64,000 nt of DNA, taken from contig NC_091475.1 in assembly GCF_036971445.1 (NCBI RefSeq), positions 175,832,001 to 175,896,000 on the forward strand, in the 5' to 3' direction. Each line of letters opens with the position of its first letter. Position 1 is the stretch's first letter. This DNA is from Narcine bancroftii. Its lineage: Eukaryota. Under the pieces are notes generated by a model that did no database searches, had not been told where the DNA came from, and saw nothing but the letters and a program-made list of their open reading frames with translations. Of this stretch, positions 13,657 through 64,000 are shown one piece after another. The translations under genes and the position numbers were made by a program.

Positions 13657-14652
13657 ACCATATAACCACTTACAGCACAGAACAGGCCAGTTCGGCCCTA
13701 CTAGTCCATGCCGTAACAAATCCCCACCCTCCTAGTCCCACTGACCAGCACCCGGTCCATACCCCTCCAGTCCTCTCCTATCCATGTAACTATCCAGTCT
13801 TTCCTTAAATGTAACCAATGATCCCGCCTCGACCACGTCTGTCAGAAGCTCATTCCACATCCCTACCACCCTTTGCGTAAAGAAATTTCCCCTCATGTTC
13901 CCCTTATCATTTTCCCCCTTCAATCTTAAACCATGCCCTCTAGTTTGAATCTCCCCCACTCTTAATTGAAAAAGCCTATCCACATTTACTCTGTCTGTCC
14001 CTTTTAAAATCTTAAACACTTCTATCAAGTCCCCCCCTCAATCTTCTACGCTCCAGAGAAAAAAGCCCCAGTCTGCACAACCTTTCCCTGTAACTCAAAC
14101 CTTGAAATCCTGTCAACATTCTCGTGAACCTTCTCTGCACTCTCTCTATTTTGTTTATATCTTTCCTATAATTTGGTGACCAAAACTGTACACAGTACTC
14201 CAAATTTGGCCTCACCAATGCCTGGTACAATTTCATCATAACCTCCCTACTCTTGAATTCAATACTCCGATTTATGAAGGCCAACATTCCAAATGCCTTC
14301 TTCTCCACACCATCTACCTGAGTATCAGCCTTGAGAGTACTATTTACCATCACTCCTAAATCCCTTTGTTGCTCTGCACATCTCAATAGCCTACCATTTA
14401 ATGCATATGACCTATTTAGATTTGCCTTTCCAAAATGTAACACCTCACACTTATTGTATTAAATTCCATCAGCCATTTCTCAGCCCTCACCTCCTAAATC
14501 ACCTTTTAATCTACGGTAATCTTCCTCACTGTCCACAACACCACCAATCTTTGTATTGTCCGCAAACTTGCTTATCCAATTCTCCACCCCTACTTCCAGA
14601 TCGTTAATATATATAACAAACAATAGTGGACCGAGGACCGATCCCTGAGGAA
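13657..14652 (-). mobile_element. 5'-truncated CR1/HER1-like LINE
   Basis: ORFs 14012-14443 and 13732-14028 encode the CR1 RT C-terminus (LVRPNLEYCVQFWSP, FFTQRVV); frameshifted; short-repeat tail. Confidence 0.95.
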
Positions 14653-14697
14653 TGTACTTCTCTCGAATGTATTGTCAATTCATTCTCCACTCTCCTT

Positions 14698-14970
14698 TTT
14701 TTTTAAATTTATTTTTCACACCATAAATCGCATTAACCATGATACACACTTTTTCCTTTTCACACATATACAGTGCCATTTTCTCCCCCCCCTCCCTCCT
14801 CCCATCCCACCCTCCCTACCTCCCCCCTCCCGTCCATTTAAGGTATAAAATCTAGGATACATTAAACCAGTCAGACAATGTTGTCATTCAATAAAAATAC
14901 ACCAGAAATTCCACTGAGTCCATTCTTTTCATTTCCTTTTCCTTCCGTTAACTTAGGTAGTGATTGTCTG
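14698..14970 (-). mobile_element. 5'-truncated L1 (3' UTR only), same family as 40133-46113
   Basis: Aligns with 40133-40410; poly(T) on plus strand; 17-bp TSD cattctccactctcctt at 14681-14697 and 14971-14987. Confidence 0.9.
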
Positions 14971-15095
14971 CATTCTCCACTCTCCTTGAAGAGCTCTGAG
15001 ATCTGCCCTTTCATTCTGCATGGATTGGCACATGTAGTCAAGGAGCCTCTCAGATCTTAGTGCCAATTAAAAAGTTGCAGGATCAAACACCCCAT

Positions 15096-16126
15096 TGATC
15101 AGTGGTGTGCCTCAAGGATCTGTATTGGGCCCATTGTTGTTCGTTATATACATTAATGATCTAGATGATGGGGTGGTGAATTGGATTAGTAAATATGCAG
15201 ACGATACTAAGATAGGTGGAATAGTGGATAATGAAGAAGGTTTTCAAGGATTGCAGAGGGATTTGGGCTGCTTAGAAAAGTGGGCTGAAAAATGGCAGAT
15301 GGAATTTAATGCTGATAAGTGTGAGGTGCTTCATTTTGGTAAGAAGAATCAGAATAGGACATATGTGGTAAATGGGAGAGCATTGAGGAATACAGAAGAG
15401 CAGAAAGATTTAGGAGTAACGGTACATCGTTCCCTGAAGGTAGAAACTCACGTGAATAGGGTGGTGAAGAAGGCTTTTAGTATGCTGGCCTTTATCAATC
15501 ATTGCATGGAATATAGGAGTTGGGAGGTGATGTTGAGATTGTATAAGACGTTGGTGCGGCCTAATTTGGAGTTCTGTGTGCAGTTCTGGTCGCCTAATTA
15601 TAGGAAGGATATAAACAGAGTGGAGAGAGTGCAGAGAAGGTTTACCAGAATGTTGCCTGGGTTTAAGCATCTGGAGTATGGGGAGAGATTGGACAGATTG
15701 GGTCTTTATTCTTTGGAGCGTAGAAGGTTGAGAGGGGATTTGATAGAAGTATTTAAGATTATGAAAGGGATAGACAGAATGGATGTGGATAGACTATTTC
15801 CGTTAAGAGGAGGAAAGATTAAAACAAGAGGACATGAGTTAAGAATTAAGGGGCAGAGGTTTAGAGGTAACATGAGGGGGAACTTCTTTACTCAGAGAGT
15901 GGTAGCTGTGTGGAATCATCTTCCGGGAGAAATAGTGGCGGCGGAGTCAATTGTATTATTTAAGAAAAGGTTGGACAGGTATATGGATGAGAAGAAGATG
16001 GAGGGTTATGGGCATTGTGCAGGGTGGTGGGACTAGAAAGGGGTGTTTGGTTCGGTGCGGACTAGAAGGGCCTAATGGCCTGTTTCCGTGCTGTAATTGT
16101 TATGTTATTATGTTATTATGTTATGA
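15096..16126 (+). mobile_element. 5'-truncated young CR1-like LINE with open RT fragment
   Basis: 313-aa uninterrupted ORF with GVPQGSVLGP and YADD motifs and CR1 C-terminus; (TTATG)-like tail. Confidence 0.95.
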
Positions 16127-17370: not shown

Positions 17371-19517
17371 CGATTTTACCACTTCATTCTCCAAGCATTC
17401 TCCTCTGTCCCTCTCCCCATTTCACTTCTGTGAAGCTTTTGTCTCTCTCGAATACCATCGGTTCTCCATTTACACTTCATCCCCCATACAGAAGGTGTCA
17501 AAGTCCTTTGTTTCTTTCTTGACAAGAGACCTTACCAGTCACCTTCCACCACCATCCTCTTCCACCTGGCAGAACTTGTTCTCGCTCTTTATAATTTCTC
17601 CTTTGACCCATTCCATTTTCTTCAAATGAAAAGAGAAGCCATGGGTCCCAGAGATGCCTGCCAGTTTGTGGGCTTTGTGAAGCAATTTCTACAGCAAGCC
17701 TACACAGGCAAGGCCTCTCAACTTTCCCTATATTGATAGCTATTTCTGAGCTGCCTCATGCACCCATGATGACCTCGTCAACTTCATTCACTTCGCTGCC
17801 AACTTCCTCCCTGATCTCACATTCATCTCTGGCAACATTCTCCCTTTTCTTGATCTCCCTATCTCCGTCTCAGGAGACAAGCTTTTACAAACCCATCAAC
17901 TCCCACAACTATCTTGACTACTGTTACTTTGTGAGCCCTGATTGGACTGTACCTCCCATGGTGTTCCATAAATGGAGGAGAGGTATTTCAGCCCAGAATG
18001 GTGTTGTCCCGTTCGACCTGCTGGCAGGACACCGCCACCAGAGTAGGTGTCCACCATTGTCACTATGAAGGCCTTTTCCTTTTGGCGTAGGAGAGGTCCA
18101 ACATAGACTACTTGCCAGACATGGCCTGCTCCTGTGCACCGCCAAATAGGCCCCAGTGTACTGGCCGTCCAGCCCCGTGGTTTAACCTATTGGTATGTGG
18201 GGCAAATATCTACCACAGCCCGTGCTTGATCCTGGGTTAATGCCACCCCAAGCCCTCTGCCCACCATTGTATTCTATAGGACCCCAGGTGACCGCTCTTC
18301 CTGTGGGCCCATGTCACCAGGTCACTGGAATCTACATAATCAGAATAGATGGAGGCTGTACAGATTTGTGCTGCATGGTCCATGGTGGCATTGTGAATGG
18401 CCTCCACTGTGGCATCCACAAGGGAGACTGTGAGTACCATCTGCTCAGCCTGCTCCCAGAGGTATCTCCAGTGCTGCTGACCCCATAGTGGGCAATTGTG
18501 GATCTCCCACCCCGCGTCGTGATAACAAGGTATCCAAACCACCACTCTGTTCACTACTGCCCATAAGTCCGAATAGATATGGAGTGGACCCATTGTTGAT
18601 TTAATCGTGAGAAATCCTGCAGCCAGCTCATACCCCCACCCCTTCCTGAGTTAGGGTCTTACCACTGGCTGGGTGCCGCTGCTCACCATAACTGCTTCCT
18701 GTTTGGCTTTCAACTCGAGCCATCCGTGAACCTCGCTTGTTGCTCTTTCTCTTTGGTGAGGGATTCAAATGGCTGACCAAGATACGGGGGAGGGATTGAC
18801 GACGGGAACTTCAGGAGGGACATGATTTTCTTGTGCAGCCTACTGACTTCTTCTGGCCCTGCTTCTGCCTTGTCACCAATGTACCATCGCCACAACAACA
18901 GAGGAGCACTGCACGTGTCCACCGCCTAATGGACAGGTGAGACCAGAGTACAACAGTCTCATTGGCTGTTTGGTGCTCTGTGGTGAGGAGAGCCAAATAG
19001 CCTACCAGGAGCTGGCGTTCTAAAGGGATATAGCAGGAGGTGGGCTCGGGAATGCTCTTTGTCCAGAAGCCAAGTGGAACTCTGAGGCCTTTAATTTTCT
19101 ACCAGATGCTCCAGTTGCCCATTATGGTGGTGGCTGAGACCAGGAGACTAGCGACAGTGCCTGCTCCATGGCTTGTTTTGCCATCTTGAATGCTAGCTGC
19201 TGTCCAAGGCCCAGTGTTCTTCCTGGAGGTGGCATACAGCAGGTGTAAGATAGGGGATATGCTGCCGCCAGTAGCCCAAAAGGCAGCAAAATTCTGTGTT
19301 TCAGCTTTGCCGGTGGGCACTGTTGTGTTTAAAATATTATTTTGTGTTGCCTCCAGGATATCACTCTGGCCTGAGTGCCACTGGACAAATATGGCAAATT
19401 TGGGGGTGGGGGGGGCCTTGTCCCACAGCCGGAGTAGCCATGCAGCTAAATACTTGCCCCCCCACCGTCAGCTGGCGGTATCTGTCCGCCCGCCCAGCCA
19501 ACTTCTTGGGGGAATAT

Positions 19518-20496
19518 TGTTACTAGCCCAAAGGAACCCAAAACCCTCTAGCAATAGACATTCACCAAGATGAGTGGTTTTTAAAACAAAAGTAATTTTT
19601 AATCAACTTTAAACATGAAAATAGAATCAAACATTAACTTAACTCTATACATAACTAACCCAAATTAACCCCCTTCTAATTCTAAGCACACGTGTATGTA
19701 ATGTGTGTGTGTAAATTCAAGAAAAGTTCTTTGGTTCACAGTTCAATCTCACTTCTCCTTCTTCCAAGTTTTCTGGTTGCAGGCAATCAGAGCACAGAAT
19801 TTAACATGTATAAAGTTCACCAGGCTTGGTGCTTGAAAGGTAAATGTTTACCGCTCAGGAAGGTTCTTGTAGGGTTTGCAGAGTTGTTGCTCCAGGATTT
19901 CCACAACTGAGGTACCAGCACTGGTCACCTCAGGGTCTCGCAGATGAAACTTGCCCCATCAGAGTTTTTCAGATGGTAACCTCTTTCTTTCAGGTTATGA
20001 CAGAACTCCTTCTGTTCCTCTTATTCCAAGCCATCCACTGCTTTTGGAACTTTTCATCAGTTCTTCCTGGATTGCACTGTGTCACACACACACCAGCTGA
20101 GAGAGCTTCTCTTCTCTCTCTCTCTCTCTCTCTCCAACTGAAACTCCAAAGAGAGCATGTGACTCATGTCTTGCAAAACCCCACCTTCTCCAGCAAATAA
20201 CAGGAGTTCTTTCTTCTGCTCTATCTGTTGTTATCTAAGGTAAACAATCCAGAGTTGACCTTTCTGTGACCGCTTTACAGAAAGGGTACTGATAGACAGC
20301 ATGACTCCAGCAAGACTATAGTCAAGCAACACCTACTTGTTCAATTAACACCTACTTGTGAAAGTTGTTTACATTTTCCAGAGATCTTGCAATGTGAATT
20401 CTTCAGTCTTTCAAATAAGATCTGTTTTAAAATGTGTGTATGTATGTGACCTACTCTAAACCTTATAAATTCTCCCCAAATATTAATATTGTTACA
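19518..20496 (-). mobile_element. Solo LTR (Gypsy-type) nested in the ERV gag
   Basis: TGTTAC...TGTTACA termini; reverse-strand homologue of 50729-51743; ATAT/GTAT flanks. Confidence 0.8.
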
Positions 20497-21318
20497 GTAT
20501 TCCCGGGCCTCTGATCTCGTACTGGCCCCTCACCCATCCACTCGGACCCTCTCCATTCTCAGCAACTTCCCTGTTGTGGAAGGCCAATGGGCAGTCCTTG
20601 TGGCGGGTCTGGAACCGCGTGGTTACCGGCCAGGCTTGTAAGGTCTCCGGGACGAGAGGGGGTGGGGCGCATAACCTAACTCCACCTCCTCAAAGTTATC
20701 ATTGTGCAGCCACTTGTCCCCATCTCTTGCCCACGCATGACGATGGTTCTGATTTTTCAGGATCAACCTGCCAGTCGGATTAGTACGCTGTCTGAAGCTG
20801 TTGTGTCTCGACTAGCTGGTAGACAGCTTCAGTGTACCTAGCATCCAAGCTCCTGATACACGCCCTGGCAGCGTCCACAGTCTCTGCAGGGACTATGATG
20901 GAGCTTTAGTCATTCAATCTATTCATCTTTCTGGGCGTTCTGATTTCTTAAATCAGACATGATACCCCACTGGCACCTAAGTACAGATATCAGTAACCAT
21001 AGGGCTCCCCCTTGTCTTGGGAAAACCTGATTCATCAAGGAGGGGGATCAAATAGTGCCCTATCTTCACTCCATGGGGGTCCAGCCTGTCGATCTAGTCG
21101 ACTAGCATGGTTTGCCAGCCACGCTGCTAAACAGCTGAACCCCTGGCAGTCATCGGTCCTCCCAGGGAATTTATATTCCGATTCCGGGGTTCCCTTACTA
21201 GCCATTGGTAAGCAGGTACACAATAATGTATGCACCCAACAGGACACCCACATACACACTTGCTAGCCAATCTCCCACATGGTTAGTACTCCACCTGTGT
21301 CCAGCTGAAACTCTTTGA

Positions 21319-21336
21319 ACCCTGCTCGCAGCACCA
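21319..21336 (-). promoter_or_regulatory. Primer-binding site, tRNA-Ser-like
   Basis: TGGTGCTGCGAGCAGGGT lies 2 nt after the LTR CA and is close to the complement of the vertebrate tRNA-Ser(TGA/CGA) 3' end (from memory). Confidence 0.75.
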
Positions 21337-22339
21337 ATTGTTGTGTTTGGAATAGTATCAAGTTCAGTGGGTTCACAGAGAGACAAGTCTGGACACAAGT
21401 GTTACAATCAAAGGTAACTTTATTAAACACAAGGGAGATAAACAAGGGAAGATGTCAAATGATATTTACTACTACTAAATAATTATATTGACATTCACAT
21501 CAGACCCAGATTGGACTCCAATACCAGTGGCCACCTATCCTCTACACAGTACGAGACAAAAACTATATTGGTGTAAGCAGGCACATCGGGCATAAGGGAC
21601 TCTGATATCCACACTCTCCTGCATGTGTACACACTTTACTGATAGGGACTTTCAAACACACTCCCGATTCCCTTTAACAAAAGGGGTTGAGGTCTCTGCA
21701 AGCATTGACCTATCACAGTCCACGACTCAACTGAAGTATAGTACACATCTTACCCGGGACCCCTCCAGCAATGTCCACAGTAGCAACCTGGCATGGAGCA
21801 ATGTCTGGGACTTGGACCAAGAGGAGGAGGAGAGAGAGAAATGTGGTATGCATCAACATTTTATCCTGTTGTGAGCTGGATTGGCAGGTAATGCAACTTT
21901 CTAACAAGTTTCAGACAGGGCGGTCACGTGACCACCCACAATCCTCAATGTTCCAGACAGACAGGGAGGCACATGTTTCTCCACAATCTGCATATAACAA
22001 CTAAACCTCTTCCCACCCTGTCCCCAGCAAGGATTCTATTCCATTCATGCAATTTCTCCATCTCCACTACATCTGTTCCTAAGATGAGGCCTTCCAGTCC
22101 AGATCTTCTGAAATATTTACCTTCTTCCATAAACGTGGCTTCCCCTCCACCACCATCAACTTAGCCCTCACCCGCATCTCCTCCATTCCCCGCACATCTG
22201 CCTTGACCCCCTCTGCCCCCAGATGTAGCAAACATAGGATTCCCTTTGTCCTTGCCTCCCAACCCACTAGCCTCTGTATCCAACACATTACCCTCTGGAA
22301 TTTCTGCCACCTACAACAGGACCCTACCAATAGACACAT

Positions 22340-28235: not shown

Positions 28236-30808
28236 CGATTTAAAAGACAGCAATATTCAATGTGAAATATGTCAGTAGTCCTTTCACGTGAATGCTGACT
28301 GAGAACGATGGCTTTGGGCAGCTTATAAGGCATCGTTCTAACCTCTACTATTGGAAATGTTGTCCACGTACAGACAATCCCAACACTGGTTTTCATACGA
28401 GAGACAAATTCAACCTCCACAACTCAGGAAACTTGATATGTCGGGGGGGGGGGGGGGGGGTTAATGTAAGAGATTATTATCAGGGTCAATATATTATTTG
28501 GCATTTATAAATGTATGGGCTAATAAAGGAATGTCATCTCAGATTTATTAAAGGCAAACAGTGTTTAATTAACATTTGAATTCCTCACTGAAGTAACAGA
28601 GAATTTGAAAAAAGGGTTCATGTTCATATGTGCTTTCTGAATACCAGAGTGGAAGTATTAACAAAGTATTAACAAAGCTGTAGTAACATGGTTAAAAAAA
28701 ATCTAATTGAAAGAGAACTGTAGAAGGGAGAAACTAGAAGATCTACAGATGCTGGGCTCTAGTGCAGTAGACAAAAGTGCTGGAGAAACTCAGCAAGTCA
28801 TGCAACAGCCAGAAAAGCTGAAGGACAGATGACTTTTCAAGTCTGAGTCCTTCTTAAAGGATGTCGAAAATCAAGCAGATGCCTGAGTGAAAAGGTGGGG
28901 TTCAGGGCAGGGGGAAGGAATATAGGCTAACAGATAAGATGGATTGTTGTATGTGGAGGAAATGTGGCCTCCCTGCCTGACTGGAATGTGTGTATTGTGG
29001 GTGGTCACATGTCCTCCCTCTCTGTAACTTATTCGGAAGTCACCTTACCTGTCAATCAAGGTTGGACTCCGGCCACCCATTAGTGTACACCTTGTCGTTG
29101 GCAAAGTTATATCACCTAGGGTCATTATTGGCTAGATGCCCGGATCAGAACTGTATAAAACATCAATGCATAGCACATTCTTTCTCTTTGCCTCATGGTC
29201 CAAGCCCTGGCCATTGCTCCTATGGACATCGCTGGAAATGTCGTGGGTAAGGTGTTCACTACACTGATGCTGAGCCATAGAATTGCGATAGATCAATACT
29301 TGCAGAGGGCCACACACCCATTGGTACAGAGAACTGGGTGTGTGTGAGTCCATTTTGTGGTGTGTGAGCATGTTGAATATAGGTTCACTATTGTCAGAGT
29401 CCAACCTAGGTCTGAGGTGAATGTCTACATCATTGCTTAAAATAGTGATTGAGTACCGTTTAACATTCTCCCCTGTTTGTCTCCCGTGTGTTAATTAAAT
29501 TTACGTGTGATTATTAACACTTGTGTCCAGACTCATCTCTGTGTGATACTCTTCCCATCAGAACAATTGGCTTTGCGAGCAGGATTCAAAGAGTTTCAGC
29601 TGGAGAGACGTGGAGTCTTTACCATGTGGGAGTGGAAGATCGTACTAAAGATGTGAGAGCTTGTACTCACAAGTGTGTGGGTGTCCTGTCTGGTGCATAT
29701 GTGATTGGGTACCTGCTCACCAATGGGGGCAGCAGGAGGTGACTGACAAATAGGAAAGGAACACTGGGGTTGGATTATAAAATCCACAGGTGGACCAATG
29801 ACCATCAGGGGTTTGGCTGTTCTGTGGTGTGGCTTGCAAGCCACGTCATACCGGTTGACTGGATCAACAGGCTGGACGCCCATGGAGCGAAGCTAGGGCA
29901 CCACCTGGTCTCACTCCTAGAGTTACTGGGGTTTCCTGAGGCCAGAGGGAGTTGTGGGGGAGCTCCCTACTTAGGTGCTAGTGGGGTATCACATCTGATT
30001 TAAGTAATCAGGGTGCCCAGCAGCAGTGCTGTTGTGCACGACAGGAGCCAGTGCAAGTGTGAGTGACCAACCTATAAATTGAAATCATGGAGGCAGCTTC
30101 CAAACTGATTGAAACACAGCAGCTGAAAGCAGCTCACTGGTCTGGCTCGCAGCTTGACCCAAACAATATCCAAGCCATTGTCCATCGGGGGAGGGGATTG
30201 ATATGTGGTTGGGGATGGGTTTGTGTTGATGGATGTTGATGATCATGAGGAAACTGAGTCCCACGGCACAGGTCCTCCCTCTGTGTGCCTGAGCCTTAGA
30301 GCTTACAAAGGCCATGCAGTCCCAGGCCTGCCACGAGTGCATCCCGCCAACCTTCCAAAATGGGGAGGTAGCCAAAAACGGTGGACTTCAGGTGGGCATG
30401 CTACCAAAGAGCTAACCGAGCCAGGTGAACACCTAGCTATGCAGCTGCCACAGCTATGGGACTAGTGGGCCACCAATTTCATCAGGAAATAAGCGCACTG
30501 GGTGGTCTGTCTGACCAATAGATGATTGGCACCACCCTTTGGGAATGAGTGGTGCCTACAGTTGGGCCAGGTCCCCTCCCCTTGCACAGCTAGCCACAGT
30601 GAACACCATTGGCGTGGGGTCACAAGTTGTTGGGGAGTGGGCACTGATCGTGCTCACCATTTCCCAAGGGACATGAAGGTGGCTGATCAGCAAGAAGCTG
30701 TTGTCATTTATTATGCAGAGAATTTTAATCAAGTCAGGCAAGATTTGTTGCCATGGAAATGTTATCACTGGACTTTCCAGCTTAACAACCCACATCCCTT
30801 GTTTCAAG

Positions 30809-31298
30809 TCTTTGGCTTGGCTTCGCGGACGAAGATTTATGGAGGGGGTAAAAAGTCCACGTCAGCTGCAGGCTCGTTTGTGGCTGACAAGTCCGATGCG
30901 GGACAGGCAGACACGATTGCAGCGGTTGCAGGGGAAAATTGGTGGGTTGGGGTTGGGTGTTGGGTTTTTCCTCCTTTGCCTTTTGTCAGTGAGGTAGGCT
31001 CTGCGGTCTTCTTCAAAGGAGGTTGCTGCCCGCCAAACTGTGAGGCGCCAAGATGCACGGTTTGAGGCGATATCAGCCCACTGGCGGTGGTCAATGTGGC
31101 AGGCACCAAGAGATTTCTTTAGGCAGTCCTTGTACCTTTTCTTTGGTGCACCTCTGTCACGGTGGCCAGTGGAGAGCTCGCCATATAACACGATCTTGGG
31201 AAGGCGATGGTCCTCCATTCTGGAGACGTGACCCATCCAGCGCAGCTGGATCTTTAGCAGCGTGGACTCGATGCTGTCGACCTCTGCCATCTCAAGTA
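30809..31298 (-). mobile_element. 5'-truncated RTE-clade LINE nested in the ERV-like element
   Basis: ORF 30862-31290: QLRWMGHVSRMEDHRLPKIVLYGEL and C-terminal CxxC..H zinc finger. Confidence 0.92.
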
Positions 31299-32207
31299 CA
31301 GCCTTTGTAATGGACCTTTTTTTAAAATTGCACCTTGAGCAGTGAACTCTGCATAAATGCTTCTCAGCATTCTCAGGAAATTGTGCTTTTGATGTAGATC
31401 ATAATTAAGATGTTACAGAATCACAAACTAGCAGGAAATATTACATATATTTTGTTTCAACTGACAATGACAGCATTGCCCCAGCCCTCCCATTAACAGA
31501 CAAATACCTCATGGGATGGGGGCTTCAGGAGGTTTTATTTAAGATCACTAATTGACTTTCAGTCCAGCTCCTCCTGGCTATTGTTACAGGGATCCCACAC
31601 AGGCACCTGTGGCACCCGTTTAAAAAGAAAACAGGCAGGAAAGGCATCCTGGTGTCAGTCGACAGTCAGGGATTATACCCTGGATATATATGTCTGCCAG
31701 CCTGCCCCCACTTCATCACGGGATAGCACAGCAATGGCCATCTGGGCACTGTGCCAAGGTGCAGGTTGTGCAAGGCAAGAGAGGGCTCTTCTGCTCGTGG
31801 ACAATTGATGGTAAGGGTGATCACGTTTGCTAGCCAAGCCAGAGAAACCAGTCAATGACCAAACAAATTTCTTTCTCTACCCTCCCCTCTGATACTGCAG
31901 CACCCTGCTCCATAAGAAACACAGTGATCCTGTTTGGTCGGGGGGAGCTGGTGAGACATTGTCATTGAATTTGATTATATATGTGCCTTGTCCAGCATGA
32001 TCCGCATGATTGGTATCATTTTGTTAAAACGTTTTTTTGTTCTTTTCTTTTCCTTTTTTTAGTTATAACATAGAGTTATTGATGGTTCTTCATTGTGATT
32101 GCAGAGTATTGTGACTTCTGAGGGGTGGAAGGTTGTGCGTAGAGGAATTGTGGCTTCCCTGCCTATCTGGAATGTGTGTATTGTGGGTGATCACAAGTGC
32201 TCCCTGT

Positions 32208-32350
32208 TTGCAACTTATTTGGAAGTCACATCACCTGTCAATCAAGGTTGGTACAGGTGATTTAAATGAGCCAACAGCAAGGAGTGCACTCATGGGTGGC
32301 CGGAGTCCAACCTTGATTGACAGGTGATGTGACTTCCAAATAAGTTGCAA
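32208..32350. repeat. Perfect 44-bp inverted repeat in the 3' LTR
   Basis: 32208-32251 is the exact reverse complement of 32307-32350; 55-bp spacer. Confidence 0.95.
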
Positions 32351-32646
32351 TAGGTCGACACTTGCAGAGAGCCACACCTCCATACAGGAAACTGGGTGTG
32401 CGTAAGAGTCCTTGTTTGTAGTGTGTGTGTGTGTGTGTGTTGAGAAAAGATTCACTATTGTTGGATTCCATCTTAGGCCCAAGGTGATTGTCTATATCGT
32501 TGCTTAAGTGAAATAGTAATTGAGTGCCGTTTAACATTCTCCTGTTTGTCTCCCATGTGTTAATTTGTTATGTGAGATTATAACTCTTGTGTCCAGACTC
32601 AAATCTCTGTGAACCCACAGAACTTGATATTCTTCCCAACATGACA

Positions 32647-40465: not shown

Positions 40466-43400
40466 TTAAATATTATTTCTTAAACTATATGTTATTTTTT
40501 CTAATGGAATACATTTATTCATTTCTATATACCATTGTTGTATTTTCAAATTATCTTCCATTTTCCAGGTTGACATAATACATTTTTTTGCTACGGCTAG
40601 GGCTATCTTGACAAATCTTTTTTGTGCATCTTCCAAGTCAATTCCAAATTCTTTATTTTTTATGTTACTTAGGAGAAAGATCTCTGGATTCTTTGGTATA
40701 TTGTTTTCTGTTATTTTATTTAATATCTGATTGAGATCATCCCAAAATTTTTCTACTCTCTCACATGTCCAGATTGCATGAATTGTTGTTCCCCTTTCTT
40801 TTTTACATCGAAAACATCTATCAGATACTGTTGGGTCCCATTTATTTAACTTTTGCGGTGTAATGTATAGTCTGTGTAACCAATTATATTGTATCATACG
40901 CAGCCTCGTATTTATTGTATTTCTCATCGTTCCAGAGCATAACTTCTCCCATGTTTCCTTTTTTATCTTTATATTTAAATCTTGTTCCCATTTTTGTTTA
41001 GTTTTACCATTTGTTTCCTCATTCTCCTTTTCTTGCAGTTTAATATACATATTTTTTATAAATCTTTTGATTAACATTGTATCTGTAATCACATATTCAA
41101 GGTTACTTCCCTCTGGTAAACTCAAGTTGCTTCCTAATTTATCTTTCAAGTAGGATCTCAGTTGGTAATATGCCAGCGCTGTATCTCCAGTTATATTGTA
41201 CTTATCTCTCATTTGTTCAAAGGATAAGAATCTACTTCCTGAAAAACAATTTTCTATTCTTTTAATCCCTTTTTTTTCCCATTTTCTAAAGGCAAGGTTG
41301 TCTATTGTAAAAGGGAGTAGCTTATTTTGCGTCAATATTAGTTTTGGTATTTGGTAATTTATTTTATTTCTTTCTACATGAATCTTCTTCCATATATTGA
41401 GGAGATGGTGTAATACTGGAGAAGTTCTATGTTGTACCAATTTTTCGTCCCATTTATATAATATGTGTTCAGGTATCTTTTCCCCTATTTTATCTAATTC
41501 TAGTCTCGTCCAGTCTGGTTTTTCCCTTGTTTGATAAAAATCTGATAGGTACCTTAATTGTGCGGCTCTATAATAATTTTTGAAGTTTGGCAATTGTAAG
41601 CCTCTTTGTTTATACCATTCTGTTAATTTATCTAGTGCTATCCTCGGTTTCCCCCCTCTCCATAAAAATCTCCTTATTATTTTCTTTAACTCTTTGAAGA
41701 ATTTTTCTGTCAGTTGTATTGGCAATGCCTGAAATAAGTATAGTATCCTTGGAAAAATGTTCATTTTAATACAGTTTATCCTTCCTATCAGTGTTAGTGG
41801 TAGCTCTTTCCAATGCTCTAAATCGTCCTGTAATTTTTTCATTAGTGGATTGTAATTGAGTTTATATAATTGGCCTAGATTTTTGTTTATTTGCACACCT
41901 AGGTATCTTATTGCCTGCGTTTGCCATCTGAATGGGGATTCCTCCTTAAATTTTGAGAAATCCGCGTTATTCATAGGCATTGCTTCACTTTTATTTACGT
42001 TTATCTTGTATCCCGACACTTCTCCATATTCCTTCAATTTCTTATATAGTTCTTTTATTGATAGTTCTGGTTCTGTTAAGTACACTATCACATCATCCGC
42101 AAACAGACTGATTTTATATTCCCTGTCTTTTATTTTTATTCCTTTTATATTATTATCTCTTCTTATCGATTCTGCTAGTGGTTCTATAGCTAGCGCAAAC
42201 AATAATGGTGATAGTGGGCATCCCTGCCGCGTTGACCTGCTTAAGTTAAATTGCTTTGATACATGTCCATTTACTGTCACTTTCGCTAACGGTCCCTTAT
42301 ATAATGCTTTAATCCAATTAATATACTTCTCCGGTAAACTGAATTTTTGCAATACTTTGAACAAGTAATTCCATTCTACTCTGTCGAAGGCCTTCTCTGC
42401 GTCTAAAGCAACTGCTACTGCCGGTGCTTTATTTCCTTCTACTGCATGAATTAAGTTAATAAATTTACAAATATTGTCTGTTGTGCGTCTTTTTTTGATA
42501 AATCCAGTTTGGTCTAAATTTACCATTTTCGGTACCTGTTCTGCTAATCTGTTCGCTAATAGTTTAGCTATTATCTTATAATCTGTGTTTAGCAGAGATA
42601 TTGGTCTATATGACGCTGGTGAGAGTGGATCTTTCCCTTGTTTTAGTATCACTGTAATTATTGCTGTTTTACATGAATCTGGTAAGTTTTGTGTCTCATC
42701 AATCTGGTTGATTACATCCAGGAGGGGCGGTATTATTAGGTCTTTAAATGTTTTGTAGAATTCTATTGGGAGTCCATCCTCTCCTGGTGTCTTATTATTT
42801 GGTAAATTTTTTATTATCTCTTGTATTTCTACTGTTCCAAATGGTTCTGTTAATTTATTTTGTTCCTCTATTTGTAGTTTTGGTAGTTCAATTTTAGTCA
42901 AAAATTCATCTATTTTCCCTTCTTTCCCTTCGTTTTCGGTTCGGTATAATTGTTCATAGAATTCTCTGAAGTTTTCCTTAATTTCTTTTGGATTATATGT
43001 AATTTGTTTGTCTTTTTTCCTTGTTGCCAATACCATTTTCTTAGTTTGCTCTGTCTTAAGCTGCCATGCTAAGATTTTGTGTGTTTTTTCACCTAGTTCA
43101 TAATATTTCTGTTTTGTCTTCATTATATTCTTCTCCACCTTATATGTTTGTAATGTTTCATATTTTATTTTTTTATCCGCCAATTCTCTTCTTTTGGTTG
43201 TATCTTCCTTTATTGCTAATTTTTTTTCTATGTTTATTATTTCCCTTTCCAACTGCTCTGTTTCCTGGTTATAGTCCTTCTTCATCTTGGTTGCATAACT
43301 TATTATTTGCCCTCTAATGAATGCTTTCATTGCGTCCCATAGTATAAACTTATCTTCCACTGATTCCGTATTTACTTCAAAGTACATTTTTAATTGTTTT

Positions 43401-44191
43401 TCAATAAATTCTCTAAAATCCTGTCTTTTAAGTAGCATGGGGTTTAATCTCCATCTATACATTCTTGGAGGGATGTCCTCTAGCTCCATTGCCAATAACA
43501 GGGGTGAGTGGTCCGATAATAGTCTAGCTTTATATTCCGTTTTCCTAACTCTCCCTTGAATGTGGGCTGATAACAGGAATAGGTCTATCCTTGAGTATGT
43601 TTTATGTCTAGTCGAGTAGTATGAGTATTCCTTTTCTTTTGGGTTTTGTTTCCTCCATATGTCCACAAGTTTCATTTCTTGCATTGATTTAATTATAAAT
43701 TTGGTTACTTTGTTCTTCCTGTTAATTTTTTTCCCCGTTTTATCCATATTTGGATCCAAATTCAGATTGAAATCCCCTCCTATTAGTATGTTCCCTTGCG
43801 TATTAGCTACCTTCAAAAAGATATCTTGCATAAACTTTTGATCTTCTTCGTTAGGTGAATATATATTAAGTAGATTCCAAAGCTCTGAATATATCTGACA
43901 TTTTATCATAACATATCTCCCTGCTGGATCTATTATTTCCTCTTCTATTTTAAATGGCACATTTTTGCTAATTAATATAGCCACTCCTCTTGCTTTTGAA
44001 TTATACGATGCTGCTGTTACATGTCCTACCCAATCTCTCTTTAATTTCTTGTGCTCCAATTCAGTTAAGTGTGTTTCTTGGACAAATGCTATATCTATTT
44101 TTTCCTTTTTCAGTAAATTTAGTAGTTTCTTCCTTTTAATTTGGTTATGTATTCCATTAATATTTAGAGTCATATAGTTCAGCGTAGCCAT
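40466..44191 (-). CDS. L1 ORF2 (APE endonuclease, reverse transcriptase, C-terminal zinc knuckle), 1241 aa
   Basis: Motifs LNINGI, QETH, GGDFN, SDHS, YRPISLLN, RQGCPLSP, FADD, CFRC..HAIWTC. Confidence 0.97.
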   Translation of the reverse strand: MATLNYMTLNINGIHNQIKRKKLLNLLKKEKIDIAFVQETHLTELEHKKLKRDWVGHVTAASYNSKARGVAILISKNVPFKIEEEIIDPAGRYVMIKCQIYSELWNLLNIYSPNEEDQKFMQDIFLKVANTQGNILIGGDFNLNLDPNMDKTGKKINRKNKVTKFIIKSMQEMKLVDIWRKQNPKEKEYSYYSTRHKTYSRIDLFLLSAHIQGRVRKTEYKARLLSDHSPLLLAMELEDIPPRMYRWRLNPMLLKRQDFREFIEKQLKMYFEVNTESVEDKFILWDAMKAFIRGQIISYATKMKKDYNQETEQLEREIINIEKKLAIKEDTTKRRELADKKIKYETLQTYKVEKNIMKTKQKYYELGEKTHKILAWQLKTEQTKKMVLATRKKDKQITYNPKEIKENFREFYEQLYRTENEGKEGKIDEFLTKIELPKLQIEEQNKLTEPFGTVEIQEIIKNLPNNKTPGEDGLPIEFYKTFKDLIIPPLLDVINQIDETQNLPDSCKTAIITVILKQGKDPLSPASYRPISLLNTDYKIIAKLLANRLAEQVPKMVNLDQTGFIKKRRTTDNICKFINLIHAVEGNKAPAVAVALDAEKAFDRVEWNYLFKVLQKFSLPEKYINWIKALYKGPLAKVTVNGHVSKQFNLSRSTRQGCPLSPLLFALAIEPLAESIRRDNNIKGIKIKDREYKISLFADDVIVYLTEPELSIKELYKKLKEYGEVSGYKINVNKSEAMPMNNADFSKFKEESPFRWQTQAIRYLGVQINKNLGQLYKLNYNPLMKKLQDDLEHWKELPLTLIGRINCIKMNIFPRILYLFQALPIQLTEKFFKELKKIIRRFLWRGGKPRIALDKLTEWYKQRGLQLPNFKNYYRAAQLRYLSDFYQTREKPDWTRLELDKIGEKIPEHILYKWDEKLVQHRTSPVLHHLLNIWKKIHVERNKINYQIPKLILTQNKLLPFTIDNLAFRKWEKKGIKRIENCFSGSRFLSFEQMRDKYNITGDTALAYYQLRSYLKDKLGSNLSLPEGSNLEYVITDTMLIKRFIKNMYIKLQEKENEETNGKTKQKWEQDLNIKIKKETWEKLCSGTMRNTINTRLRMIQYNWLHRLYITPQKLNKWDPTVSDRCFRCKKERGTTIHAIWTCERVEKFWDDLNQILNKITENNIPKNPEIFLLSNIKNKEFGIDLEDAQKRFVKIALAVAKKCIMSTWKMEDNLKIQQWYIEMNKCIPLEKITYSLRNNI

Positions 44192-44789
44192 TTTATATTT
44201 TGTTTATCTTCTCTTTCCGTTTTTCCATCATTACCTTTCCTCCTTTTCCATTTCTGTTTTCTTATTTTCAACTCTTTACCAGACAACATTCCTACAACAT
44301 CCAACATTTTCCTTATTCTCCTATTTCTATCTTCTTTATCCCCAGTCTCCCCTTCCCCTCCTGAGTTGCCCTTTATCCCTTGTCGGACAACCACATCTCC
44401 CCTCTCCATTTGGATTTGCGAATCCACTCGCAAGCGTCAACTGATTTTGCAGTGACCGCTCTTTTCCCCCACCCAGCCCCCCCAGAAAAGATTTCGCTTT
44501 TTATATGTCACAAAGGTCACTCTTTTAATTCCCTCCTTATTCTCTCTATTCCATTACCTTCTCTTATTAATTCTTGTCTATACTCTCTATGTTTTCCTCT
44601 AATTACAGATACTTTCACATATGCCCATTGTCTCTATTCACTCTTATACCTCTTTACCCGCATACATATCAATCGTGGTCATTTTTACCCTCCTTACCCT
44701 TCTTCATCCCTCAGTCTATTTTTGTCTTTACCCACATACATATCAATCGTGATAATTTTTGCTCTCATTACCCGTCTTCATCCCTCAGT

Positions 44790-45635
44790 CTATTTTTGTA
44801 ATTGTTCTGCAAATTTTCGTGCTTCTTCTGGATCCGAGAATAGTCTGTTTTGTTGTCCTGGAATAAATATTTTCAATACCGCAGGATGCTTCAGTGTAAA
44901 TTTATATCCTTTCTTCCATAAAATCGCTTTTGCTGTATTGAACTCTTTTCTCTTCTTTAGGAGTTCAAAGCTTATATCTGGATAAATGAAGATTTTTTGC
45001 CCTTTATACTCCAGTGGTTTGTTGCCCTCTCTTACTTTTTCCATTGTCTTCTCCAGTACCTTTTCTCTTGTAGTATATCTTAGGAATTTTACTACAATAG
45101 ATCTTGGTTTTTGTTGTGGTTGTGGTTTAGGGGCCAATGCTCTATGTGCCCTTTCTATTTCCATTTCTTGCTGTAGTTCTGGACATCCTAGGGCCTTAGG
45201 GATCCATTCTTTTATAAACTCCCTCATATTCTTGCCTTCTTCATCTTCCTTAAGGCCCACTATCTTTATGTTATTTCTTCTGTTATAATTTTCCATTATA
45301 TCTATTTTTTGGGCTAGTAATTCTTGTGTCTCTTTAGTTTTTTTATTAGATTCCTCCAATTTCTTTTTTAAGTCTTCTACCTCCATTTCTGCTGCTATTG
45401 CCCGCTCTTCCATCTTGTCCATTTTTTTCCCCATTTCTGTTAAGGTCATATCCATTTTATTTATTTTCTCTTCTGTGTTGTTTATTCTTCTTCTTAAATC
45501 ATTGAATTCCTGTGTTTGCCATTCTTTAAATGACTCCATGTATCCTCTAACAAGAGCAAGTATATCCTTTACCTTGCCTTTCCCTTTATCTATTTCACTG
45601 TACTCTTCCTCTTCTTCTTCCTCTGGGTTGACCAT
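44790..45635 (-). CDS. L1 ORF1 (coiled coil, RRM, CTD; Transposase_22-like)
   Basis: ENYNRRNNIKIVGLKE, IERAHR, PRSIVVKFLRY and IFIYPDIS motifs. Confidence 0.95.
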   Translation of the reverse strand: MVNPEEEEEEEYSEIDKGKGKVKDILALVRGYMESFKEWQTQEFNDLRRRINNTEEKINKMDMTLTEMGKKMDKMEERAIAAEMEVEDLKKKLEESNKKTKETQELLAQKIDIMENYNRRNNIKIVGLKEDEEGKNMREFIKEWIPKALGCPELQQEMEIERAHRALAPKPQPQQKPRSIVVKFLRYTTREKVLEKTMEKVREGNKPLEYKGQKIFIYPDISFELLKKRKEFNTAKAILWKKGYKFTLKHPAVLKIFIPGQQNRLFSDPEEARKFAEQLQK

Positions 45636-46439
45636 CTGTTGTTTCTTTGCTGCCCTTTCCTCCTCTTCTTTCTTGTTTCCATTGTCTTCTGTGGTCTCTT
45701 CTTGCTGCAGGTGTTCTGCAGCTGTCGTTGCCGGCTGTGGAGATCGACTCCCCAGCTGGTCCCCCCTCCCGTCGGTGTGTTTTTTTTCATGCGCGGTTGC
45801 GCACTTTTACTCGGCTCTGTGAGCCATTGTTGTAGTTCTTTTTCTACCGACCTGAGGTAGTGGGCTCCTCTCTCCACAGCGGGCCTCTTCGGACAGGTAA
45901 GGCCTTCACCTTTTTCCTCCGTTGTCTTCTCTTCCTCTCTTCTTTCCGTTGATTTTGATTTTTCTCCTTTTGTCTCCATCTTCTTTCCACCTTTATACTC
46001 ACTTTTCTTTAACTTGTATTTCTGTGCCTTTGTATTTTCTCTTGTTTTTCCCGACTTTTCTGGAGAGGGCTGGAGTTCACCGTCCGGCCACTACTCCATC
46101 ACGTGACTCCCCCCACTACAGCTTCCTTGAGGTGGGTGCAATGGGGCAAGACTGTTGCCCAACCACTTCTGGAATGTGTGCTTGCCAAGGAACAGAGTAG
46201 CAGTGGATTTTGTCATACTGTTCGTACCAAGCTGCTTAATGACAGGATCTCCATTTCATGGGCTTAATGACAGGATCTCCATTTCATGGGCTAATATAAT
46301 GGTGCACACAGAGATCAAAAGTAGGTGCTGCTAAAAGGTTACAAAAGTCATCCTTTGATTTGCCCAAACATTGCTGATCTTCCAGGGCACGTAGTTGCCT
46401 ACAACTGAATGTTGCTGACTGGTCCAGTTCTACACAATG

Positions 46440-50728: not shown

Positions 50729-51743
50729 TGTGACAGATTATAGATGTTTTTTTGGGAGATAAATTGGGCAGGTTTTTTGGTGTAGGTCACATACAAACAT
50801 TTCAAAACAGATCTCATTTAAAATACTGGAGCTCTGCTCAAGCTGGACAGGCTGGCTCCGAGAACCTTTGCAAAAACTTTGGAGAGTGCCCAAGGACTAA
50901 TGGATTGTTGTTTTGGAAAGCAACAGATGAAAGAACTCGGAGGAGTAGTTTTGGAGTAGGCTCTCTGGGAGTGCTGCTTGCTGTTCTAAGAGGTTTTGCA
51001 AGCAGAAAGGGAGCGAAACAGGCTTTTCTCTGAGAGGGAGAGAGAGGGAGATCAGTTCGGCAGTTTTACAGTCAGCAGCAGCAGCTGGGACTGGAACAGG
51101 AGAAGCTGGCAAACTTGTGGAAAAACCCCGTTTTGAAGACGGGTTGTGAGTGCTTAGTTCAGCCTGGTCAAAGGCCTTATGGTTCATACAAGAAGAGAGG
51201 ACTGGCTGCCTAATGTTTCACTTGAAATAAGAGAAACCAAAAGGAACTCTGTAGTGACCAGAAAGAAAGAGATTATTATCTGGAAAACACTGATGGGGCA
51301 AGGTTTTTCAGCAAGACACTGAAGTGGCCGATTAAAAGGGATCAGTTGTGGGTATCCAGCGAACAACAAATCTCTCTCTCTGAAAACCGACAAGAACCTT
51401 CCTGAGCGGTGACCATTAATCTTTCAACCACCAAAGCCTGGTGAACTTCCTAAATGTTAACTTCTGTGCACAGTCTAAGAACTGCCTGCAACCAGTAAAC
51501 TTGGAGAAATGAGAAATGAGATTGGACTTTGAATCGAAGAACTTTTCTGAATTTACACACACTTTACACACACGTGCACTTAGAATTAGAAGGGGGTAAG
51601 GTAGGTTAGTTAAAAGTGATAAGTTAAAGTGTGATTTTGTTTTCATGTTTAAAGGTAATTAAAAGGAACTTTTGTTTAAATAACCATTTGTCTTGGTGAA
51701 TATCTATTGCTGCTGGGTTTTGGGGTCCTCTGGGCTCGTAACA
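50729..51743 (+). mobile_element. Solo LTR (Gypsy-type), about 1 kb
   Basis: TGTGACA...GTAACA termini; perfect 4-bp TSD CTTG; homologous to 19518-20496. Confidence 0.88.
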
Positions 51744-61646: not shown

Positions 61647-64000
61647 TGTAGCGTCTGCTATGGCAAGTGCTATGGAATATAGAGACATCCACATGGTGTG
61701 AGGGTGAACCAGTAACTGACTTTATTATTTTAATTCCTTGCGCTGTGCATAAGGGAACACACATTTCCAGTGACGCGTGTGCCAGATTCCAAAAGCGGGG
61801 AGTTCCCCGAGGGAAAATGTGGCTTCAACAGCGGGCTTCTCCTCGGGAGTGAAGTGGGACCCACGCCATCTTGAGTCGGCCAACTATGTCAGTGATTTGG
61901 CCCATCTAACCGCGCAGCCCCCCCACCAGTATCACGACCGTCCTCTGAGCAGGTTGCTGTACAGTCTCTGGGTAGTCAGCTTCTGCGTCTGACCTGGGGG
62001 GTCCAGGGCCGGCAAGTCTGAGTCTAGGTACGCTGCCTTGAGGCAGTCGATTGTGAATCTGTCCTGTCGACCACCAATGTCCAGTGTAAACATGACAGAG
62101 TATCTCTGCAACACCTTGAGTGGTCCTTCGTAGGGACACTGTAGGGGTGTTTCTTCTTGTCCTCTCCGCATGAAGACGAGGTCGGTGGACTTTAGGTCCG
62201 CGGGGATGTGGCAGGGTGGAAACCCAAGTCAACCTCTGGAGGACATTTAGGGCGCTGGGCTGTGGGCCAGGGAGGTTGAAGCGAATGTCCTGGAAATGTT
62301 AAGTGGGAAACCGTACCCCATCTCGGTGGATGAGGCTAGTAGATCTTCCTTCAGTGCTGTACAGATGCCCATGGGAGCTCGCCCACTCAATTTGGGCCTT
62401 GTAGTCAACCAGGCCATTTACCTGAGAGGGGTAGGCCGTAGTGTGGTGTAACTGGCTGCCGCGGAACTTAGTTAGGTTAGCCCAGAGCGAGGAAGTGAAC
62501 TGTGCCCCTCAGTCCGAGGTAATGTGGGTCAGGACTCTGAAGTGTGCAACCCACGTGGATAAAAAGGCTCTGGCGCATGTCTCTGTGTTGCACGTGGGTA
62601 GGGGTATGGCTTCCAGCCAACAGGTAAAACGGTCGATTGTCGTGAACAGATACTGCATACCCAGGCTCACAGGGAGTGGGCTGACAATGTCTACGTGCAC
62701 ACGCTCAAACCAGTGCTGTGCCACCTCGAAAGTCTGGAGTGGGGCTTTGACACTGCAAACAGATTTTAGCCTACAGGGTCACGTCTCGGCAGAGGTCATG
62801 CCACACGAACTTGCTGGACAACAGGCGGACCGTGGATGTTATGGAGGGGTGGGACAGGCCGTGGATCTGGTTGACAACCCACCATCGCCAGGTCGCAAGT
62901 AGGATGGGTCTGGGGAAGCCTGTGGATACGTCGCATAATAGGGACGGGCCTTCTGGCGAGGGGCAGAAGTCACTGACCTTCAGGCTGGTGATGGCAGTCC
63001 AGTAGGTCTGGACATCTGCATCCTCTGCCTGGTTCTTGGCAACATCGTTCCCCTGAGGTTGCAGCAATCATGGGTCTGGATAACGCGTCAGCCACTACGT
63101 TGGACTTGCCTGCAATGTGGTGAATGTCCTTGGTGTACTCCGAGATGTGGGAGAGGTGATGCTGTTGCCTTGCTGACTATGAGTCTGAGACCTTGCTAAG
63201 TGGTGTATGGTCTGTGTAGGTGGAGAAAACCCTTCCCTCTATCATATCAGAAGTGTCGCATCGCCAGGTACAGGGCCAACAGCTTAAGGTTGAACGTGCT
63301 GTATTTGAGCTCTGGTGTCCAGAGGTGTTTGCTCAAGAAGGCAAGGGAGCACTAGTGCTCATTGACCCACTGCTCCAGCACTGCACCCATTGCTTTGTCC
63401 GATACATCTGTTGTAAGGGCCACGGGGGAGATTGAGTCTGCATGTGCCAGGATTGTGGCCTGCACCGGTGCTGCTTTCGTGGTCTGGAATGCTTCTGTGG
63501 TGTCCAACGTCCACTGGGGCGTCTCGTTGCCGAGTTTGATGAGGTCTAACAGGGGCTGCATGAGGGCCCCTGGTAGGAAGTTTACCATCCCCAGGAACTC
63601 CTGCAGGCCTTTGATTGTACTCAGCTTGGGAAAGTTCTGGATGGCCTCTACTTTGTCCAGCAGTGGTGTGGCTCCCTTTGGTATCCAAGAAAGTCGACTG
63701 TCTCTAGGCCAAACTGGAACTTGGCTGGGTTCACCATGATTCCGAACTGCTGCAGCCTGTCGAAAAGGCAGGTCAGGTGCGTCCTGGTGTCAGGGCTGGC
63801 GGTGAGAATGTTGTTCAGGTAGACGAAGATCAAGTCAAAGTACCTACCGACCATTTCCATCAGTCGCTGGAACGTCTGGACTGTGTTCTTCAATCTGAAG
63901 GGCATCCTTAGGACCTCGAAAAGGCCGAAGGATGTGATGATGGCCGTTTTCAGGACGTCACTGGGATGCACCGGACTCTGGTAGTACCCTTTGATGAAGT
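61647..64000 (-). mobile_element. Degenerate Gypsy LTR retrotransposon (RT, RNase H, integrase, PPT, 3' LTR 61647-61916); continues beyond the window
   Basis: KTAIITSFGLFEVLRMPF, VYLNNIL, ALTTDVSD, IHGLSHP, VHVDIVSPLP, ITSD and PYEGPLKV motifs; G-rich PPT next to the LTR. Confidence 0.93.

Follow-up and report, generated by a model that had tools for sequence, protein, structure and literature searches.

The element described here occupies positions 17922-21999 on the minus strand of the window, a 64,000-nt stretch of contig NC_091475.1 to whose full length all coordinates refer. We read it, with a probability of about 0.9, as a broken provirus with two deletions that belongs to an old class III (ERV-L/S-like) family of endogenous retroviruses (ERVs), inserted with a 5-bp target duplication into a repeat of a host that is likely an electric ray, and likely primed by tRNA-Ser. 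An original prediction, made from the sequence alone, had placed the locus in class III on the basis of seven quoted protein motifs, a Ser-like primer site and a 5-bp target duplication. All seven motifs are present on the minus strand (18282-19446) in three different frames. This class call holds, being borne out by summed tblastn scores and by two phylogenetic trees, and the novelty of the finding is smaller than the prediction had claimed.

Placement and anatomy of the window element

A first homolog search (integrase piece, longer proteins) identified none among 399 candidates. A HMMER search of representative proteins with the integrase piece of L003, another genomic copy of the family, returned 533 proteins with E-values up to 0.001, the best relatives coming from Hypanus sabinus (53%), Hippocampus, Polypterus, Geotrypetes, Pelobates, Trachemys, Oryzias, bilby and marmoset. 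With low-scoring pieces included, the summed tblastn bit scores of the window pol remnant were 525 for stingray, 424 for caecilian, 388 for Xenopus, 357 for killifish and 290 for a mouse-cluster Pol carrying dUTPase, followed by 114 for STLV-6 and by 104 and 71 for Gypsy-like proteins. Overall, stingray proteins were the closest database relatives, ahead of ERV-L-like Pols from fish, amphibians, birds and mouse. A quick tree, from which 16 rows had been dropped as short, redundant or off-target, produced a long-branch warning and was replaced by two careful trees of 43 and 33 rows, in which each window piece was entered as a single natural frame. In the RNase H-integrase tree (43 rows), both window pieces belonged to the clade of the old family, to which the Hypanus protein was sister (100/100). 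This tree grouped all ray sequences, from this old family and from a young sister family described below, in one clade (99/97). In the reverse transcriptase (RT) tree (33 rows), the window piece fell in the old clade together with a Hemitrygon protein (100/100). Clustering of Pol with Gypsy, which the prediction had named as evidence against itself, was not what these trees returned.

The predicted chondrichthyan host was supported by an acetylcholinesterase exon, 421 of whose 450 residues are identical to chain 1gqr_A and its equivalents, which we take to be Torpedo acetylcholinesterase. This match scored 1009 bits; the next group reached 734, and the chains that we take to be mouse and human no more than 640. 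On this evidence the ray-like genome is that of a cartilaginous fish and probably of an electric ray.

The element ends in TG...CA, at 21999 and 17922, and is bracketed by an imperfect target duplication with 4/5 bases alike (ACTAC / ACTAA). The flanking host repeat is present in high copy number (4,837 candidates in the genome, 40 scored). An earlier empty-site test on local loci yielded no pair, and 14 fetched host-repeat copies were used later. In seven of these empty copies the flanks joined with an overlap of exactly 5 bases, the other seven showing overlaps of 8, -7, 13, -9, 6, 865 and -9. Because half of the empty sites join with exactly 5 bases, we regard the 5-bp duplication, as originally proposed, as real and altered by one later change. 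Target duplications of this length are typical of class III ERV-L/S elements, and a literature search for 5-bp duplication as a class III trait gave no result. The proposed Ser-like primer binding site was likewise upheld: it matches a tRNA-Ser(TGA) gene of the same genome (locus L087, called by ARAGORN) at 16/18 positions, compared with at most 12/18 for the other tRNAs compared (34 calls at 30 loci) and 9/18 for Ser(GCT). An earlier tRNA pattern had returned provirus-side tRNA fragments, four loci giving no ARAGORN or Rfam call.

The predicted extent of 17922-21999 was accurate at both ends, but only the 5' long terminal repeat (LTR) is kept within it, the coding sequence stops in mid-integrase, and a foreign 979-bp solo LTR is nested in the element (Table 1). 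The deletion at ~19385-19408 removed C-terminal gag, the protease and the RT catalytic core including the active site. Homology to other copies ends at ~17930, 8 bases short of the element's end. Likeliest, a second deletion removed everything past mid-integrase and spared only the last bases of the 3' LTR, which the terminal 8 bases, agreeing with the old-family LTR end in their last four positions, would then represent. The surviving integrase matches Hypanus protein P0002 at 54% in tblastn and the young-family Pol at 34%. The Pol order of RT, degenerate RNase H tether, separate RNase H and integrase can be followed through the window pieces; a tether combined with a separate RNase H is a retroviral trait. 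The window copy is dead and codes for nothing functional, and its LTR could at most still serve as a promoter.

Table 1. Features of the class III element and of a second family member in the window
Feature	Position	Strand	Basis or remark
Left target-duplication copy, ACTAC	17917..17921	+	within high-copy host repeat
8 terminal bases, non-integrase, ending AACA like the family LTR end	17922..17929	-	probably last bases of deleted 3' LTR
Integrase remnant, zinc-binding region to second catalytic aspartate region, then cut	17930..18273	-	
Connection end, RNase H (FTDGSS, IYSDLWAV) and integrase start (WAHRKSGHLG); frameshifts and stops	18255..18907	-	
RT thumb and tether (degenerate RNase H; LGFWTK, PLERQLL)	18919..19386	-	tblastn and motifs
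Junction of ~1.8-kb deletion, mid-gag to RT thumb	19385..19408	-	sides ~1.8 kb apart in L021, L023
gag remnant with AAWLLRLWD (19420-19446)	19409..19517	-	
Solo LTR (979 bp) from an unrelated, younger family, nested in and interrupting gag; TG...CA, ATAC/ATAT as 4-bp duplication	19518..20496	-	
Leader and 5' part of gag	20497..21318	-	67-72% to full-length copies; weak match to young-family Gag
tRNA-Ser(TGA) primer binding site, 16/18	21319..21336	-	versus tRNA gene of same genome
5' LTR, 661 bp, TG...CA	21339..21999	-	sequence and genomic copies
Right target-duplication copy, ACTAA, one change versus left	22000..22004	+	sequence and empty sites
Second, pol-less member of same family, both LTRs, primer site 14/18	28946..32641	+	

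Extrapolating from the young family and from general retrovirology, transcription of the ancestor would have been driven by its LTR, and Gag-Pol would have been produced by read-through of one stop codon, as in the young sister family. Reverse transcription would have been primed by tRNA-Ser(TGA), with the integrase cutting the target at a 5-bp stagger. The lineage probably entered the germ line through infection by an env-bearing ancestor and may then have multiplied largely without env. After insertion, the window copy would have gained the solo LTR, lost two large segments and decayed. The family of the nested LTR comprises 7,366 candidates in the genome and shows an exact 4-bp duplication in 7/11 other copies; it is nearly absent from runs of two further organisms (C and D) in which the old ERV family does occur. 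Another copy of it lies in the window at ~50776-51743, and no internal genes were found for this family.

Alternative explanations

Several observations weigh against this interpretation. The window copy has no RT core, env or 3' LTR, and none of its 13 frames yields a meaningful Pfam score (18 window frames run, none significant); the identification rests on homologous copies and proteins. Env was seen in none of ten family copies (L021-L040). The terminal 8 bases also fit the end of the nested LTR family at 7/8 positions. The clade uniting the old and young ray families lacks resolution in the RT tree, and an approximately unbiased (AU) test does not reject a placement of the old family next to the Gypsy-like outgroup (p = 0.147), so that its position inside the group is provisional. 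The trees contain no HERV-L, HERV-S, snakehead or foamy sequences, and the identity of mouse-cluster protein P0182 as MuERV-L, like that of the outgroup as Gypsy-like, is presumptive.

The AU result, together with the lack of env in the window and in ten fetched copies, could be taken to favor a Gypsy-type LTR retrotransposon rather than a retrovirus, and for one decayed RT piece the Ty3 RT is the top solved-structure match, level with foamy RT. The branch leading to the Gypsy-like rows, however, measures ~2.4 changes per column with 100/100 support, so the AU result bears only on the position of the root. The presence of tether and RNase H, the env remnants in related copies, a foamy integrase as the top structure match and scores to ERV-L-like Pols five-fold higher largely refute this reading, which we consider extremely improbable. 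An element related to snakehead retrovirus, as known from the elephant shark (CmiERV lineage I), deserves slightly more thought, since snakehead-like elements occur in cartilaginous fish (PMC4422223, in part) and are likewise placed in the large clade Huo (PMC6001957, in part). As no such protein is in the trees, separation from these elements rests on motifs compared by eye and on the missing Gag zinc finger. The snakehead-like shark RTs carry NGFWS and QYVDD where the old and young ray families carry NAFFS and HYIDD, and the single zinc finger of snakehead Gag (PMC1224870, in part) was found neither in the open young Gag nor in any frame of 10 old-family loci, where decay could hide one. With young Pol also 47% identical to mouse-cluster Pol over 959 residues, a snakehead-like origin appears very unlikely.

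The two remaining alternatives concern history rather than class. In favor of a jump, both trees intermingle class III lineages from different host classes (e.g. owl with frog and lungfish), and host switching is frequent in clade Huo according to the relevant part of PMC6001957; the trees as such are compatible with deep ancestry as well as with host jumps. A fairly recent jump into rays from a tetrapod or teleost host is nevertheless improbable, because the nearest relatives of both ray families are stingray proteins, LTR pairs have diverged by 16-25%, and the pol remnant is covered at ~82-87% by contigs from organisms C and D; an ancient jump is possible. It is also rather unlikely that the deletions predate the insertion, the window copy then belonging to a non-autonomous subfamily moved in trans. 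Such an origin would fit the target duplication that still brackets an element ending in AACA, the many copies without env and the pol-less second element of the window. Four of eight compared copies, however, match both sides of the window junction 1.7-3 kb apart and none shares the junction, other copies continue through integrase where the window copy stops, and an element that has lost its 3' LTR is unable to go through another round of reverse transcription.

Old and young families in the ray genome

Besides the self match, a genome DNA search for the old family returned 46 matches at 67-80% identity (40 scored of 444 candidates), and an LTR search returned 4,756 candidates, 40 of which were scored at ~75-81%. 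Paired LTRs were present in 5/10 copies fetched with flanks and the HxIDD RT motif in 4/10. The RT of one copy matches RVT_1 at 1.3e-12, and the integrase of L003 matches PF00665 (rve) at 1.4e-10. LTR-pair divergence, as Kimura two-parameter (K2P) distance, was 0.16-0.25 in five copies and the second window member, whose own pair is 85.5% identical over 372 columns (K2P 0.16). Absolute dating was abandoned, as these distances translate to ~370-570 My under the shark rate assumed in PMC4422223 and to ~37-57 My under its mammalian rate. The second window member shows no clear target duplication, its 3' LTR contains an internal inversion, and its body carries a young 491-bp insert that is 96-99% identical to other genomic copies.

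Env-bearing copies, recommended as a check in the original prediction, were looked for and located: two more distant copies of the old lineage, L045 (E 2e-20) and L054 (E 4e-16), contain env remnants, and the young family carries env. No dUTPase match was obtained in the ray loci, in which only a short C-terminal segment was matched. The contigs from organisms C and D that cover the pol remnant hardly touch the nested LTR, so the family is shared with other species labels, either through descent or through parallel invasion. The insertion at the orthologous site was seen in no contig from organism B, C or D; organism B contributed one 151-base contig identical to 18034-18184, which is too little to use.

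The genomic RT search also gave many near-identical places with a 1,043-residue frame, which belong to the young sister family. Its loci (L046-L055 and L062-L081) were pooled, and the 16 fetched copies, chosen for long frames, are a small part of several hundred: a 30-base pattern spanning LTR and primer site has 636 exact occurrences in the genome, while the reversed control occurs 0 times. In these copies gag is followed by a single in-frame TGA, then by pol (with RT, tether, RNase H and integrase) and env. Young Pol matches the Pfam domains RT_RNaseH_2, RNase_H and rve, with no dUTPase among its Pfam matches, and scores only ~165 bits against foamy and MLV RT chains; env matches TLV_coat (7.6e-15) and syncytin-2 (3.5e-16). 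Among database proteins, one from Hemitrygon matches the family best, at 64% within the searched part.

The young family uses a Ser(TGA) primer site and shows an exact 5-bp duplication in 11/11 copies with both ends located (16 examined). LTR pairs were found in 14 copies and are 99.2-100% identical in nine, with two pairs fully identical. All three frames are full length in 5/16 copies and LTRs are identical in 2/16, the two properties coinciding in 0/16. Between young subfamilies, the ratio of nonsynonymous to synonymous substitution rates (dN/dS) is 0.28 for env and 0.13 for pol; judged by sequence, env is under purifying selection, and from both ratios we infer that the family spread by infection at least until the subfamilies split. 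It may still be spreading. The family was detected, on short contigs, in three other samples of the same organism label and was not found at 90% in organism C. Runs X7, X8 and X10 cover it including env; their RNA origin is a guess, and they were not used as evidence of expression. For the window stretch itself, no RNA data set was listed as containing it.

Seven young-family copies (L067, L069, L074, L077, L078, L079, L110) share an internal env deletion (~residues 82-440), which suggests an env-less branch spreading inside cells. In L082, L084 and L085, at ~1470-1540, up to ~55 bases of the primer tRNA-Ser with CCA are fused to the young-family LTR end, and one of these fused copies keeps the TGA anticodon. 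Taken at face value, such fusions record a primer copied past the usual 18 bases and are direct fossil evidence of the primer used.

Elements of other kinds are also present in the window. Two open frames of 1,245 and 338 aa on the minus strand (40469-44203 and 44793-45806) resemble, by eye, an intact long interspersed element (LINE) of the L1/Tx1 type. A GC-rich stretch at 62404-63821 (minus strand) gives weak matches to RT, RNase H and integrase and likely represents a Gypsy-type element. A long inverted repeat at 14000-15768, 73-93% complementary, overlaps a 321-aa LINE RT-like frame at 15071-16033 and likely consists of two LINE copies arranged head to head.

Relation to known retroviruses and significance

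HERV-S is primed by tRNA-Ser and combines a gamma-type env and the lack of a dUTPase with a class III Pol. ERV-L elements carry a dUTPase after the integrase, are Leu-primed and env-less, and generate 5-bp duplications. The protein searches returned no HERV-S protein; comparison of organization alone reveals the HERV-S combination in the ray families (Ser primer, gamma-type env, no dUTPase, class III Pol), the window copy differing from HERV-S in having no env. The ray families share with MuERV-L and HERV-L the 5-bp duplication and, in the young family, a Pol 47% identical to P0182, in which a dUTPase domain is present. They differ from ERV-L proper in that no dUTPase was found in the ray copies, the window copy itself lacking the region after integrase, in that some copies have env, and in a primer site pointing to Ser(TGA) (16/18) rather than Leu, with no tRNA-Leu gene among the 34 calls compared. 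The sections of PMC1224870 on these features report no Gag zinc finger in HERV-L, none having been found in ray Gag either, and describe the primer site alone as an unreliable class marker. On this sequence comparison, the ray family is a member of the ERV-L/S-like class III group that is built like HERV-S and is not ERV-L proper.

The original prediction had regarded a chondrichthyan class III element as a possible novelty and the group as best known from tetrapods. Such an element is less of a surprise than this implies. Annotated Pol proteins related to it exist in stingrays, teleosts, bichir, lungfish and amphibians, which extends the group beyond tetrapods. In the part of the 2018 study PMC6001957 available here, class III lies within clade Huo, which is found in all major vertebrate groups, and in the tip order of its S2 Fig the whale-shark element Rh_ty_ERV3 and the killifish element No_fu_ERV1 are already immediate neighbors of HERV-L, murine ERV-L and HERV-S. 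Rh_ty_ERV3 thus shares a cartilaginous-fish host with the ray element, and its Gag (S2 Data) contains, by eye, a W-L-x-x-x-W-D-x-G segment and a downstream block as in young ray Gag; this likeness is one of Gag appearance and tip listing. The closest counterparts are Pol gene models of stingrays (Hypanus sabinus XP_059827331.1 and Hemitrygon akajei P0193 and P0171), listed as uncharacterized proteins, which are sisters to the old family (100/100; 53% identity) and to the young family (100/98 in the RNase H-integrase tree; 62%), and for which no provirus description was found. CmiERV lineage I and snakehead retrovirus share clade Huo and a cartilaginous-fish host with the ray families, and differ in RT signature and Gag zinc finger as far as the published portions considered here extend. 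No description of the ray families was found in the literature, the search having covered sources other than repeat databases and most subscription papers.

The window copy is one ordinary fossil among many, and the young sister family is the better lead. In the portion of PMC10435555 considered here, invading ERVs are recognized by identical LTRs together with gag, pro, pol and env in undamaged form, and by insertional polymorphism; 13 cartilaginous fishes were screened, and none of the 37 host orders of invading ERVs is chondrichthyan. The part of PMC12287698 that was available added nothing on fish. As a tentative and rather doubtful extension, there may be a clade of class III retroviruses peculiar to rays, Ser-primed, with env, lacking dUTPase and HERV-S-like in build, which entered the germ line in repeated waves. 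The window element would then be a fossil of an old wave, and the young one would be continuing its spread by infection in the electric ray. If true, a retroviral invasion in progress would be shown for the first time in a cartilaginous fish. The young family makes it testable whether an env-bearing class III retrovirus still replicates by infection in such a host, and the co-occurrence of an old and a young wave in a single genome, both of them having stingray sisters, provides material on co-divergence versus host jumping near the base of the jawed vertebrates.

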